64,000 nt of DNA from Escherichia phage CLB_P2: the sequence record OL770107. The stretch is one strand, 5' to 3'. Positions 28,989 to 48,254 of the stretch are shown piece by piece (the first letter of the stretch is position 1; every line of letters begins with the position of its first letter). The notes beneath the pieces are model-generated. The model was given only the letters and a program-made list of their open reading frames with translations. It was not told the DNA's origin and made no database searches. Made by a program: the position numbers and the translations under genes.

Positions 28989-29221
28989 TGAAATTTCGTC
29001 TAGTTAAGTTTTCAGGTCTGAATTCAAAAGGTGAAAGCTTAGTAGCCTATTCGGTAGAATACAAAAAGTACTTTTTCTCTCGATGGAAATCGTACTATAA
29101 ATCCGAGTGGGTTTATGCCGACATGAATTACAAAACAGTGCCTATTCTTGAGAATTGCCATAGCCTATTAAGAGCTCTAAAAGAGCGTAATGCAACCACT
29201 ATTAAAACTATCCTGGAATAA
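28988..29221 (+). CDS. hypothetical protein
   Basis: 77-aa ORF. Confidence 0.35.
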   Translation: MKFRLVKFSGLNSKGESLVAYSVEYKKYFFSRWKSYYKSEWVYADMNYKTVPILENCHSLLRALKERNATTIKTILE

Positions 29222-29223
29222 TT

Positions 29224-29523
29224 ATGATTTTAACTGAACAAGAAACTATTCGGCTCCGTGAAAAAGTCAAGACTATCTTGTCTGTAGGCTTTCACGAAGT
29301 TCTGTTTGAAAAGGCGGATGGCAGCGTTCGTCGTATGACTTGTACTCGCGACCTAGACCTCCTCCCATATAAAGAAATTCAAGCACCGGGCCCAGAAGCT
29401 AATAAAGAACCGGTTAATTATATTCGTGTATTTGATACCAAGGTTAATGACTGGCGCTCGTTCCGTTTCGATAAACTGATTTCTATTAACGGGCTTCAGA
29501 CTGAAACTCTGCTTGTCCTGTAA
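29224..29523 (+). CDS. hypothetical protein
   Basis: 99-aa ORF. Confidence 0.35.
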   Translation: MILTEQETIRLREKVKTILSVGFHEVLFEKADGSVRRMTCTRDLDLLPYKEIQAPGPEANKEPVNYIRVFDTKVNDWRSFRFDKLISINGLQTETLLVL

Positions 29524-29525
29524 TA

Positions 29526-29551
29526 TGCTTTAAGAATAGCGTGTTATTATT
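29526..29551 (+). promoter_or_regulatory. candidate MotA-box middle promoter for gene 31
   Basis: ATGCTTTAAG then about 14 nt then TATTAT, about 30 nt upstream of gene 31. Confidence 0.35.
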
Positions 29552-29581
29552 AATCTATCAACAAAACAACATGGATTAAAT

Positions 29582-29905
29582 ATGGAACTTCCTATTAAAG
29601 CGGTTGGAGAATATGTTATTCTCGTTTCCGAACCAAAACAAGCTGGCGATGAAGAAACTACTGCATCTGGTATCGTTATTGGCAAACTTCATCAAGGTGA
29701 AATCCCTGAACTTTGTGAAATTTATTCTGTAGGACCTGATGTCCCTGAAGGTTTTTGTGAAGTAGGCGATTTGACTCCACTTCCTGTTGGTAAGATTGCT
29801 AACGTGCCTCACCCTTTAGTTGCATTGGGTATTAAACAGCCTAAAGAAATTAAACAGAAATTCGTTACCTGTCACTATAAAGCTATTCCGTGTCTTTATA
29901 AGTGA
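29582..29905 (+). CDS. 31: co-chaperonin (GroES-like) gp31
   Basis: 107-aa ORF; [14 protein letters not shown] and VPHPFVALG-like blocks; C-terminus [15 protein letters not shown] as in T4 gp31. Confidence 0.85.
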
Positions 29906-30065
29906 TATAAATAATAATATGGATTGGCTGATGCCATACAGAGCTTTGCTGGTGTATGGGGTTAGCTAATCCTAAGCGGTGGACTACAACTGAGAGACTT
30001 GCCGAAAGGAAGTGAAATTCAGAAGAACGTGTCCACCAATCTTTATCTCGAATTGAGAATTTAAA

Positions 30066-30314
30066 ATGAACAAACATCTGAATCACGCTCTTGAACTGCA
30101 ACGCAACGCTTGGAACAACGGCCACGAAAACTATGGTGCATCTATTGATGTTGAAGCCGAAGCACTGGAAATCCTGCGTTATTTCAAACATCTTAATCCT
30201 GCTCAGGCTACTCTGGCTGCTGAACTGGAAGCAAAAGATGAACTGAAATATGCTAAGCCTTTGGCTTCAGCAGCTCGTAAAGCAGTACGTCATTTTATTA
30301 TTACCCTGAAGTAA
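30066..30314 (+). CDS. rIII: rIII-like lysis-inhibition accessory protein (positional call)
   Basis: 82-aa ORF in the position rIII occupies next to gene 31 in T4; no motif confirmation. Confidence 0.5.
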   Translation: MNKHLNHALELQRNAWNNGHENYGASIDVEAEALEILRYFKHLNPAQATLAAELEAKDELKYAKPLASAARKAVRHFIITLK

Positions 30315-30667
30315 AATCGAGGAGCCGTCGAACTGTCTGATTAATGATTTGCGAATCATTATAGTTTTAAGACCCCGGCAGTTTTACGGTGTACCTCTTG
30401 AATGTTATTTTATAGCGGCAAGTGCATGCTACCCCGAGGTGATGGCCAATCGGGAGTACGCCTCAAGGCCTATATACCCATCAGTATATATCTTATCCTC
30501 GAGAAATCGAACCCGGAACCTTTAAGCTAACGGTGTGCAACAGATAAGAGCTATGATGACGAGGTTTATGGTTATCCTGTCGTTAAATATCCGAAACCTA
30601 TGTTCCCCTTGAGGGCTTGCGCAGGCAACGCCAATAAGTCCTGCATTCTAATTTAAGAGATTTAAAA

Positions 30668-30829
30668 ATGGCTAAGAAAGAAGTTAAAGTAGTTGACGGA
30701 ACCTCTAAACGCGCTGGTTACAAGCGTGCGTCTAACAAGCGTATCAATCAGGTAGTTGATAAGCTTCAAGCTCGTGCTCGTGCAGTATTGCGTGCAGATG
30801 CTGCTTGCTTCGGTAAAGTTATTGCATAA
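30668..30829 (+). CDS. small basic protein (53 aa)
   Basis: Below the ORF-track cutoff; read by eye: MAKKEVKVVDGTSKRAGYKRASNKRINQVVDKLQARARAVLRADAACFGKVIA; AAGAG RBS; followed by a strong terminator. Confidence 0.35.
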   Translation: MAKKEVKVVDGTSKRAGYKRASNKRINQVVDKLQARARAVLRADAACFGKVIA

Positions 30830-30834
30830 GTTAT

Positions 30835-30860
30835 GGGACTCTTCGGAGTCCCATTTTTGT
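30835..30860 (+). terminator. rho-independent terminator
   Basis: GGGACTC-TTCG-GAGTCCC followed by ATTTTTGTTT. Confidence 0.7.
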
Positions 30861-30880
30861 TTCTAAATCTTTAAAAAAAG

Positions 30881-30909
30881 GTATACATCTCCGGTAGGCA
30901 TGATACTAT
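30881..30909 (+). promoter_or_regulatory. early promoter cassette (PeSL-like)
   Basis: GTATAC, 17 nt, TACTAT, followed by the 37-nt leader GTACCAAATAATACGAAAACAAACTGGAGAATAAAATG. Confidence 0.45.
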
Positions 30910-30950
30910 AGACATGTACCAAATAATACGAAAACAAACTGGAGAATAAA

Positions 30951-31319
30951 ATGAAAATCAATCTTAACTCATACATCAAAGGTAAAGACCACGACGGTTA
31001 CAAAGCCATTGAAACTAAAGAGATGCAATGGCGCTTGTACAAAGAACAATTTGAATTTGTAGGTTGTATGACTCCTGAAGGTCCTTCCGATGACTTCTCT
31101 TGGAAAATTTTGGTAACAAACTTTTTTACTGGCGATACCTACGAACTGAAAACTATCATAACCGGTAAGATTCGTTGTAAGACCTATGAAGATGAAGAAA
31201 CCGGTTATTCTGAAGATGTTACATGGTATCAAAATGGTCGTATCACTACAGATAACCTGATCGAAAAAATGAATGCCAAAGGTGAATTAAATTTAGATAA
31301 TTGGATTAAAGTTGCATAA
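30951..31319 (+). CDS. hypothetical protein
   Basis: 122-aa ORF behind cassette leader with GGAG RBS. Confidence 0.45.
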   Translation: MKINLNSYIKGKDHDGYKAIETKEMQWRLYKEQFEFVGCMTPEGPSDDFSWKILVTNFFTGDTYELKTIITGKIRCKTYEDEETGYSEDVTWYQNGRITTDNLIEKMNAKGELNLDNWIKVA

Positions 31320-31323
31320 AACG

Positions 31324-31352
31324 GTTTACTTTGGTACAGGTTGTGTTATTAT
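31324..31352 (+). promoter_or_regulatory. early promoter cassette (PeSL-like) with hairpin
   Basis: GTTTAC, 17 nt, TATTAT; inverted repeat GGTACAGGT...ACCTGTACC; same 37-nt leader as the cassette at 30881. Confidence 0.5.
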
Positions 31353-31393
31353 AGACCTGTACCAAATAATACGAAAACAAACTGGAGAATAAA

Positions 31394-31759
31394 ATGAACT
31401 ACATCAACTTCGAACGTAAATATGTTTCTAACGGTATCGCTGGTTCTTCTGAAGTTATTTGTCTGTGGAAACACAACAACGGCACAGTGTGTGAAATCGA
31501 ACAGTGCATGACTCCTAACTACGTTTATATGCGCTTTGAAAATGGTATCACAGTTTCAATCACTATGGAAGGTTCTACTTTTAAAATCGCTTTGGACGAT
31601 GATTTCCGTCAACGTGATTTAGGTACCCATCCTTGCTGGAACGGTTCTAATCGTAAGCTTCTGGTTAAAACCTGGATTCGTCACATCCTGAGCAACCGTG
31701 CTAAACCTGAACACCTGGAAGCAATCTTTGATGTAGTTCTGAATGAATTTGATATCTAA
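31394..31759 (+). CDS. hypothetical protein
   Basis: 121-aa ORF behind the identical leader. Confidence 0.45.
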   Translation: MNYINFERKYVSNGIAGSSEVICLWKHNNGTVCEIEQCMTPNYVYMRFENGITVSITMEGSTFKIALDDDFRQRDLGTHPCWNGSNRKLLVKTWIRHILSNRAKPEHLEAIFDVVLNEFDI

Positions 31760-31770
31760 TCTTAAAAATG

Positions 31771-31790
31771 GAGGCTTCGGCCTCCTTTGA
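31771..31790 (+). terminator. hairpin terminator
   Basis: GGAGGC-TTCG-GCCTCC followed by TTTGAGG. Confidence 0.45.
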
Positions 31791-31800
31791 GGAAAATATT

Positions 31801-32088
31801 ATGTTTATGACCACTTATTTCGATACTCGTAAAAATTTCTGTGAAGTTGTTTTCTCTAAGGCAGGTAAAGATGTTCCTGCTGAAAAACAGCCTACTCGTG
31901 AATCCATTAAGGCTTATGCTGATGTGGTTTGTCCAGTAGAATTCCGTACAGTCAATGGTCGTGACACCCTAGCAATCACTAAGCTCAACCATGATATTAA
32001 CATCGACCCTAGCGCTGCCCGTGAAGTCAATACTTCTGACATCTACGGTGGTAATGTTAAATCACATGGATTTCAGATGAGGTTCTAA
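31801..32088 (+). CDS. hypothetical protein
   Basis: About 95 aa from ATG at 31801 with GAGGA RBS; the table ORF start at 31768 would include the terminator hairpin. Confidence 0.4.
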   Translation: MFMTTYFDTRKNFCEVVFSKAGKDVPAEKQPTRESIKAYADVVCPVEFRTVNGRDTLAITKLNHDINIDPSAAREVNTSDIYGGNVKSHGFQMRF

Positions 32089-48192: not shown

Positions 48193-48222
48193 TCTAGTGT
48201 GTATAGCCATTTTATGGTTATT

Positions 48223-48254
48223 GGCCCTTCCGAAAGGTTGGGCCCTTTTTGTTT
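48223..48254. terminator. bidirectional terminator
   Basis: GGCCCTTCC-GAAA-GGTTGGGCC flanked by T-runs on both strands. Confidence 0.5.

Follow-up and report, generated by a model that had tools for sequence, protein, structure and literature searches.

A putative 139-nucleotide RNA domain with a covarying kissing loop in the rIII–30.9 spacer of enterobacterial T4-type phages

The rIII–30.9 intergenic spacer

The DNA analyzed here, referred to as the window, is a stretch of 64,000 nucleotides from Escherichia phage CLB_P2 (sequence record OL770107), a Dhakavirus, i.e., a JS98-like T4-type coliphage, with about 98% identity to phages dhaeg and JS98 over positions 29000–32000. Comparison with the JS98 and T4 annotations gives the local + strand gene order cd, 31.2, 31.1, 31, rIII, 30.9, 30.8, and the interval 30315–30667 is therefore the intergenic spacer between rIII and 30.9. 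A previous sequence-only reading of this DNA had pointed to the spacer as a stretch free of open reading frames (ORFs), and this was borne out: between the rIII stop codon (30314) and a 53-amino acid ORF at 30668, no ORF of at least 60 amino acids is present on either strand, and the region 30315–30950 is the largest in the 64 kb that is not covered by any ORF of this size. Only 3.6% of the window lacks such cover, and the second-largest uncovered gap measures 228 nt and contains the 55-amino acid uvsY.-2 gene and a terminator. The longest ORFs in the spacer itself are a 58-amino acid ORF with a TTG start (30349–30525) and a 42-amino acid ORF (30402–30530). The following features were located:

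29906–29913: late promoter octamer TATAAATA, just 3' of gene 31
30066–30314, + strand: gene rIII, the upstream cistron (phrog_1457, lysis inhibition accessory protein, E 5.6e-43)
30317–30401, + strand: module G, predicted four-helix rod (covariation, alignment A7)
30413–30551, + strand: module A, predicted 139-nt RNA (covariation, covariance model R1)
30556–30601, + strand: module B, predicted H-type pseudoknot (manual structural alignment)
30602–30619, + strand: module C, predicted local hairpin and conserved GCUUG (sequence reading)
30621–30644, + strand: predicted hairpin H, directly 5' of the 30.9 ribosome-binding site
30655–30670, + strand: Shine-Dalgarno-like AAGAG (30655–30659) and ATG of 30.9 (30668), from the sequence
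30668–30829, + strand: gene 30.9 (phrog_1427, family of unknown function; annotated as 30.9 in JS98)
30833–30854, + strand: predicted intrinsic terminator just 3' of 30.9, with a 9-bp GC-rich stem followed by a T-run

The terminator was the sole terminator-like site returned by a scan of 29800–31000. Promoter scans of 30315–30667 yielded neither the T4-type early-promoter consensus nor TATAAATA nor a + strand sigma-70-like site, and no consistent promoter of its own was found upstream of module A across its copies. With no internal promoter, a late promoter upstream at 29906 and a terminator downstream at 30833, the spacer modules can most simply be read as part of a bicistronic rIII–30.9 transcript of the + strand. 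Viewed as RNA, the spacer is a predicted head-to-tail chain of structures, in which modules G, A and B are followed by two hairpins and then by the ribosome-binding site of 30.9.

Blastn searches with the spacer matched about 1000 phage records, but only piecewise. In T4, both flanks are present (about 95% identity) and a central block of some 140 nt is missing; Klebsiella phage Marfa shares this central block alone (about 93% in blastn), its flanks being different. Alignment with the additional relatives PG7, Muldoon, OLB35 and JC221 showed that the modules are separable and that their order and presence vary among genera. Second copies of any of the spacer modules were not found within the 64-kb window, and the idea of a dispersed repeat was dropped.

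Comparative evidence for the fold of module A

The central block, module A, is predicted to consist of two hairpins that are locked by a kissing loop and joined to a three-helix domain via about 50 invariant junction nucleotides. The helices are P2 (30428–39/30446–61), P3 (30471–77/30484–90), P4 (30491–97/30543–49), P5 (30499–502/30507–10), and P6 (30511–15/30531–36), and the kissing interaction comprises 6 bp between the apical loop of P2 (30440–45) and the loop of P3 (30478–83). A further helix, P1 (30417–19/30468–70, GGC/GCC), was proposed by RNAalifold and is considered tentative, since it is invariant apart from one U.G pair and covariation is therefore uninformative.

Support for this fold comes from a MAFFT alignment of 20 distinct copies (alignment A3) that was built independently of any structure. 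Across the 44 proposed pairs, 95.9% of the cells hold standard pairs, compared with 30–40% in a slid control in which the 3' partners were moved by one to three columns, and half of the pairs (22/44) exhibit compensatory double changes. None of 500 shuffles reached the observed pairing values; shuffles ignore the relatedness of the sequences, whereas the slid control preserves it and is therefore the stronger of the two. Helices P2 to P6 were independently recovered by RNAalifold from a model-derived alignment of 39 copies. It is readily apparent that the kissing loop covaries, as six different loop sequences occur (UGAUGG, CGAUGG, CUAUGG, CAAUGA, UGUAUU and UGCAUU), each of which is exactly complemented in the P3 loop of the same copy. 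The P5 hairpin UCGA-GAAA-UCGA appears as CUGA-GUAA-UCAG or CCGA-UAAA-UCGG in relatives, and the covariation in P6 (C-G to U-A) stems solely from a subfamily residing at a second locus (see below). In the window sequence, every proposed pair of module A is canonical. U.G and G.U pairs are common on the + strand, e.g., closing P3 in 34 of the 39 copies and forming the first pair of P5 in seven, and would turn into A.C mismatches on the opposite strand, which identifies the + strand, i.e., the sense strand of the flanking genes, as the RNA strand. Taken as a comparative prediction, the fold of module A itself is one in which we place very high confidence. When folded as a single sequence, the module has no striking folding energy (z = -1.18), and its minimum-free-energy structure does not match the one derived by comparison.

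Two motifs highlighted by the sequence-only reading find their place in P5. The CTCGAG palindrome is indeed present (30498–30503) and is a by-product of the covarying P5 hairpin. The TCGAACC motif (30507–30513), described earlier as isolated and unaccompanied by a tRNA cloverleaf, corresponds to the 3' strand of P5 and is replaced by TCAGACC or TCGGACC with compensating changes in relatives; ARAGORN detected no tRNA or tmRNA gene in the window, in agreement with that description.

The approximately 50 invariant positions of module A are nearly all junctional (e.g., GGCAAGKGCAUG and GCUAACRGUGUGCAAC) and are maintained even across two subfamilies with almost completely different helices. Any contacts formed by these junctions lie beyond the reach of covariation because the positions do not vary. 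The same applies to a candidate pseudoknot between GCA (30424–26) and UGC (30536–38), all positions of which are invariant, so that it is neither supported nor rejected. The family is phylogenetically shallow, comprising about 23 distinct sequences from one phage lineage, and part of the invariance may therefore stem from recent shared ancestry or horizontal transfer instead of constraint.

Modules G, B, C and hairpin H

Module G is predicted to form a rod of three helices (30317–22/30396–401, 30324–28/30386–90 and 30332–37/30377–82) with an apical hairpin (30342–49/30354–61). In alignment A7 (15 variants), 98.9% of the cells are paired, compared with 29–54% in slid controls; five pairs are doubly changed and several invariant G.U pairs are possible on the + strand only. 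Directly after the rIII stop codon, the module carries an invariant GGAG (30321–30324). Its apex is the hairpin TAATGATT-TGCG-AATCATTA (30342–30361), which had been noted together with a T-tract. This hairpin exists and is perfect, while a role as terminator did not hold up, as the terminator scan did not call it; just one of its eight stem pairs is G-C, and it is enclosed by the three other conserved helices of the module.

For module B, the order S1-5', S2-5', S1-3', S2-3' with covariation in both helices points to an H-type pseudoknot. S1 pairs AUGAC[G]AGG (30556–64) with CCUGUCGU (30576–83), S2 pairs 30567–73 with 30595–601 around a GGUU/AACC core, and an A-rich loop 3 occupies 30584–94. 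Among 15 variants, 85.8% of the cells are paired compared with 64% in shuffles, of which 0 out of 1000 reached the observed value, and 11 of 15 pairs show double changes; all these figures rest on a hand-made alignment prepared with the structure in mind. S2 occurs as GUUGGUU/AACCAAC, UAGUAGU/ACUACUA, GUGAG/CUCAC and CAAGGUU/AAUCUUG. The module is located 3' of module A in the window and in T4-type phages, and 5' of it in Marfa, Muldoon, and PS2.

Module C, as judged from reading the sequences, is a hairpin of the type CCC(C)-UUGA-GGG followed by GCUUG, with the variants CCUC-UUA-GAGG in PS2, CCC-UAU-GGG in the relative L013, and CCC-GAAA-GGG in K41P2. T4 and leE carry it in the absence of module A, and in L013 and L018 it is placed 5' of module A. 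Hairpin H combines a GCAGG/CCUGC stem with the conserved loop CAAYGYCAAUAAGU; the stem reads ACUGG/CCAGU in L061 and GCGGG/CCUGC, with a G.U pair, in L017, and in Marfa and PG7 the hairpin is replaced by a different structured module, F.

A pair of complementary 8-mers, proposed earlier to interact over a long range, also proved to be present (CCTCAAGG at 30461–30468 and CCTTGAGG at 30607–30614), but their pairing is not conserved. Relatives carry CCTTATGG/CCCCTTGAGGG (L012), CCTCAAGG/CCCTTAGGGG (L008) or CCTTAAGG/CCCTTTATGGGG (Muldoon) at these positions, and the long-range helix is broken in L008, L012, L013, Muldoon, PS2, JC221 and phi5, all of which maintain the two local structures. The downstream element is furthermore found in T4 and leE, where the upstream one is absent. 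Each 8-mer belongs to a local structure, CCTTGAGG being part of module C, and the long-range helix is therefore unsupported.

We regard modules G, B, C and H as more likely to be generic leader or spacer elements that shape message stability and translation. Among the options left by the sequence-only reading, a structured non-coding RNA has gained strong support from covariation in four separate modules and from G.U pairs that fit the + strand only.

Coding potential and searches for known RNA classes

Alignment with relatives, suggested earlier as a check, revealed nucleotide-level conservation without a conserved reading frame. In all 22 full-length variants of module A, nearly all six frames contain at least one stop codon. 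The variants measure 136, 139, 140, 144, 146, and 148 nt, and the length differences include 1, 4, 5 and 7 nt, which are not multiples of three. The start codons of the 58- and 42-amino acid ORFs do not fall within the conserved element and are missing from relatives, and neither ORF gave a Pfam match. Between genera, module A retains 83–91% nucleotide identity, compared with 73–76% for rIII and 57–71% for 30.9.

The second check that had been put forward, a covariance-model scan alongside the tRNA search, returned no known family. Rfam 15 (4227 families) gave no match anywhere in the window at gathering thresholds; with E up to 10, region 29800–30900 produced merely two chance snoRNA matches, both outside the spacer, and with E up to 5, five divergent homologous loci gave no match over module A. 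No known class of self-cleaving ribozyme in Rfam matched module A in the window or at the five homologous loci. Blastn against 5,426 E. coli genomes (E up to 10) found no match to module A. A likeness of GGGAGUACGCCUCAAGG to helix 27 of 16S rRNA was dropped, as there was neither an E. coli blastn match nor an Rfam rRNA match. Conserved strings of module A were not found in the papers searched nor in the first 200 of 408 files of the supplement of a human-microbiome RNA catalogue, and literature searches on T4 non-coding RNA, rIII and 30.9 turned up nothing about this spacer. The expression of rIII and 30.9 was reportedly the subject of work by Driukas and Nivinskas in 2003 (Biologija; cited in PMC9409239). 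On the basis of these comparisons, module A is a new, previously undescribed RNA family and fold, although the kind of function it serves may still prove to be a known one.

Distribution and exchange of module A

Covariance model R1 scores 169 bits at module A of the window and detects one copy per genome. By blastn, the module is present in about 406 phage records, nearly full length in 395, with hosts that include Klebsiella, Escherichia, Shigella, Enterobacter, Yersinia, Salmonella, Citrobacter, Serratia, Raoultella, and Erwinia, and in almost all of these records it either lacks an annotation or is called a 'hypothetical protein'. Pattern scans of IMG/VR (differently anchored), metagenomes and 185,579 species genomes returned contigs of enterobacterial T4-type phages plus chance matches, and the scans of IMG/VR and metagenomes uncovered no more distant phage homologues beyond this set. 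An apparent bacterial homologue in a Rubrivivax MAG was rejected as a chance match in a GC-rich coding region; the same sequence occurs in two metagenome contigs. The sequence collections searched thus show module A to be restricted to enterobacterial T4-type phages.

Within these phages, the occurrence of module A is patchy. It is present at 10 of 29 rIII loci. Sister Dhakaviruses, whose RIII proteins are 96–98% identical, carry an unrelated 47-nt cassette at exactly the borders of module A, and T4 has neither. T4, Mosigvirus and several Dhakaviruses have gene 30.9 but no module A. Remnants were seen in Mosigvirus OLB35 (the first 30 nt or so) and in Shigella phage CT01 (the 3' half only, with a mutated invariant core). 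The neighbors of module A and their order vary among genera.

A second locus harbors a divergent subfamily (104–108 bits) in Yersinia phage JC221, in Pseudotevenvirus phi5 and two IMG/VR contigs, and in Slopekvirus K41P2. Here, module A is located 3' of uvsY.-2 and a small ORF and 5' of a bidirectional terminator and the convergent gene uvsW.1, so that no gene lies downstream of it; it is present at 2 of 21 uvsW.1 loci. An ATAAATA-like box was seen upstream of the module A copies at this uvsY locus only. The general picture shown by the genome comparisons is a cassette-like presence and absence of module A at two unrelated loci, with swapping or loss between close relatives.

Possible functions of module A

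Our preferred interpretation, to which we assign a probability of about one half, sees in module A an autonomous RNA domain of accessory function that has a protein or ligand as its binding partner and is possibly released at its A/U-rich flanks, and not a dedicated leader of 30.9. The + strand rIII–30.9 message would carry modules G, A, B, C and H as RNA elements that fold independently and can be exchanged independently. The invariant junctions of module A could create a pocket or surface that recognizes one particular partner (a protein of the phage or the host, or a small ligand), and the domain might act after cleavage from the mRNA within the A/U-rich flanks. Its function would then be an accessory, non-core one and not dedicated to the regulation of 30.9. 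A specific, autonomous activity is favored by the invariant junctions, the tertiary kissing loop, a nucleotide conservation higher than in the flanking genes, and the way in which module A is gained, lost and replaced as a cassette, as is typical of accessory functions. Arguments against a dedicated 30.9 leader or riboswitch are the second context, in which no gene follows, the changing neighbors 3' of module A with no conserved expression platform, and the many phages that retain 30.9 but not module A; in most genomes, module A does lie upstream of 30.9 and may act in cis as a regulator. Going one step further, module A may constitute a new functional RNA class that is exchanged like an accessory gene, be it a self-cleaving ribozyme, a ligand-sensing aptamer, or an RNA decoy or sponge that neutralizes a factor of the host, for example a protein of anti-phage defence or the signal it responds to; we put this forward as a tentative idea to which we lend less weight than to its opposite.

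Other explanations were weighed against this interpretation. That the spacer is a decayed or unconventional coding gene, represented for example by the 58-amino acid TTG ORF or the 42-amino acid ORF, is suggested by some GenBank records annotating a 'hypothetical protein' there, but is given virtually no credence in view of stops in nearly all frames, non-triplet lengths, paired substitutions in stems, unconserved start codons and the missing Pfam match; the degraded gene remnant considered in the sequence-only reading was rejected on the same grounds, together with a nucleotide conservation above that of the flanking genes. An element acting at the DNA level, i.e., a replication origin, a packaging site or a recombination hotspot, appears very improbable. 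Cassette replacement at fixed boundaries does indicate recombination at module borders, but G.U wobbles are tolerated on one strand only and loop-loop covariation is a feature of RNA, the RNA recurs at an unrelated locus, and the architecture of a promoter plus stem-loop is lacking; the replication or packaging cis-element originally considered was abandoned accordingly. Packaging in T4-type phages proceeds by a headful mechanism without a pac site, and we know of no mapped T4 origin at this spacer.

The remaining candidates all act as RNA. Module A could be the sensor of a riboswitch-like composite leader, in which binding of a metabolite or protein controls translation of 30.9 via B, C, H and the ribosome-binding site region. 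It resembles an aptamer in its variable helices and invariant junctions, resides upstream of 30.9 on the same strand in most genomes, and in relatives a hairpin UUCUCC-AAAAU-GGAAGA overlaps the Shine-Dalgarno region of 30.9. We nevertheless deem this explanation unlikely, as the copies in phi5, K41P2 and JC221 have no downstream gene before the terminator and the convergent gene, 30.9 persists where module A is missing, and both the modules 3' of A and the distance to the start codon vary, leaving no conserved expression platform. Less likely still is a new self-cleaving ribozyme or a nuclease processing signal that separates the rIII and 30.9 messages or frees a stable RNA. Phage-borne self-cleaving ribozymes are typically pseudoknotted RNAs with an invariant core that are encoded between genes on the sense strand and occur sporadically; module A shares these traits and is flanked by A/U-rich sequence in every context, but no known family matches even at E up to 10, no candidate cleavage site is apparent, and 139 nt with six helices exceed most self-cleaving classes. 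Similarly low is our estimate for a purely passive, stabilizing role of the modules, module A among them, as compact folds that would stop 3'-to-5' exonucleases or hide RNase E or RegB sites and so prolong the life of the upstream or downstream cistron. At both loci, module A follows a small ORF and lies no more than a few hundred bases from the end of the unit, the GGAG next to the rIII stop codon matches the RegB motif, and RIII modulates RegB via ribosomal protein S1 (PMC9409239). For such a purpose, however, simple hairpins would suffice, while a specific tertiary fold is indicated by the kissing interaction, which covaries, and by some 50 unpaired nucleotides that are invariant, and close relatives dispense with module A yet keep both genes.

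A spacer that is blank or labelled 'hypothetical protein' in about 400 genomes holds a complex, strongly constrained RNA fold without known relative, next to several smaller RNA modules that can be exchanged. To our knowledge, T4 and its relatives have almost no annotated non-coding RNA beyond tRNAs, introns and two old "stable RNAs", despite intense study. Module A is a candidate for a new ribozyme, aptamer or RNA–protein system that is readily testable in E. coli phages, and sister phages without it, or with a different cassette at its site, provide natural knock-outs for comparison. The spacer is also evidence that plastic regions of T4-type genomes shuffle RNA modules besides genes.

Comparison with known systems

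Mobile regulatory cassettes are known from T4-type genomes as PeSLs. These are short intergenic elements that border insertions, deletions and replacements (PMC2839356, PMC4122927) and consist of a stem-loop, a sigma-70-like early promoter (TTTACW-N17-TAYWAT) immediately 3' of it, and then a Shine-Dalgarno sequence with a start codon (PMC4122927). The spacer modules are likewise swapped at fixed borders but are predicted to adopt complex folds rather than terminator hairpins and are not associated with an early promoter: the consensus TTTACW-N17-TAYWAT has seven matches in the window, none of them in 30315–30667 and the nearest at 31325.

The pseudoknot in the leader of T4 gene 32 is an autogenous translational operator and possibly the only viral example used in the autoregulation of translation (PMC3014915). 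Module B resembles it as a putative H-type pseudoknot in the mRNA leader of a T4-type phage that is followed by A/U-rich sequence, but is found at another locus, has no established homology with it and moves between positions 5' and 3' of module A. T4 rnaC and rnaD (species 1 and 2 of the tRNA cluster) are, like module A, small phage non-coding RNAs (119–139 nt) of unknown function. They are unrelated to it: model R1 finds nothing at T4 positions 70908–71171, the sequences are dissimilar, and rnaC ends in a tRNA-like arm.

With the aptamers of purine and lysine riboswitches, module A shares adjacent hairpins that are locked through Watson-Crick pairing between their loops, as well as conserved junction strands that could form a pocket. 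An aptamer-like fold with covarying helices and invariant junctions, as expected of a riboswitch, is predicted here. The architecture is different, however, as the tentative P1 encloses P2 only and leaves P3 outside, and two other hallmarks of riboswitches do not apply. Instead of a consistent 5' leader position before a coherent set of genes, module A has two genomic contexts, one of which lacks a downstream gene, and a conserved expression platform is missing, since the sequence 3' of module A differs among genera (B, C, D and others), which makes a conserved alternative pairing with module A impossible.

The orphan structured RNA motifs of the Weinberg/Breaker type, which were discovered through comparative genomics and some of which are phage-borne, as are GOLLD and ROOL, lend themselves to a further comparison. 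Module A is much smaller than GOLLD and ROOL, is confined to enterobacterial T4-type phages and has no match in Rfam 15. What it has in common with these RNAs of unknown function is its definition purely by covariation and invariant junctions, its intergenic position on the sense strand and its sporadic distribution.

Promoters and a reused leader module around rIII

Among the conserved elements flanking rIII is a further structured RNA module, module F, which lies in the spacer between gene 31 and rIII. The features of this spacer are:

29906-29913, T4-type late promoter octamer TATAAATA, directly after the gene 31 stop codon
29978-30037, module F
about 30045-30058, hairpin between module F and the rIII start (30066)

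In the window, the outer stem of module F is GGUGGAC/GUCCACC, the conserved strands are CUACAAC and GAAGAACGU, and the apex is formed by a GAAA hairpin. The outer stem carries compensatory changes in relatives, reading GGUAGUC/GACUACC in T4 (L001) and GGGAGC/GCUCCC in Marfa (L002) and PG7 (L004). In the latter two phages the module is located upstream of 30.9, and it is therefore a leader module that is used again ahead of different genes. The position of the late promoter octamer implies a predicted late transcript that would comprise a leader of about 150 nt, rIII, the RNA modules and 30.9.

Just past the rIII stop codon, an internal loop of module G, the four-helix rod, contains an invariant GGAG (30321-30324), the motif of the RegB endoribonuclease; the RIII protein reportedly binds ribosomal protein S1 and inhibits RegB activation (PMC9409239).

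Seven sites in the window match the T4-type early-promoter consensus TTTACW-N16-18-TAYWAT exactly, compared with 0.6 expected by chance. All lie on the + strand (11299, 14569, 15646, 31325, 39779, 54791 and 58817), and together they provide a ready-made map of early promoters for the window.

The uvsY-uvsW gap

In other genera, module A, the 139-nt structured RNA of the rIII-30.9 spacer, has its second locus in the gap between uvsY.-2 and uvsW.1. In this phage the gap measures only about 60 nt (48193-48254) and contains just a bidirectional terminator hairpin, GGCCCTTCCGAAAGGTTGGGCC. The corresponding regions in relatives are:

JC221 (L006), about 745-1030
leE (L028), about 860-1010
K41P2 (L076), about 815-975

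In these regions, the second-locus copy of module A precedes an early promoter of the T4 type, GTTTAC-N17/18-GATAAGAT or -GATAACAT. Some 120-250 nt in which no ORF is conserved separate this promoter from a strong bidirectional terminator farther downstream. This promoter-to-terminator stretch may represent a separate small RNA gene of Pseudotevenvirus and Slopekvirus phages.

Remnants and replacement of module A

Shigella phage CT01 (L078, 501-569) carries a truncated module A that consists of the 3' half only and has a G-to-A change within the otherwise invariant GUGUGCAAC, and in the Mosigvirus OLB35 (L007, about 700-730) the module is reduced to its first ~30 nt. Judging from these two remnants, module A is still decaying in some lineages. 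In the sister Dhakaviruses L047, L051 and L058 (about 1850-1900), a different cassette of 47 nt, GTACTATCACGTGTCAGAAAAAGGTTATCTGTCTAAGCCGTGGTTGG, sits exactly at the place of module A; it partially resembles module B, the H-type pseudoknot of the window.
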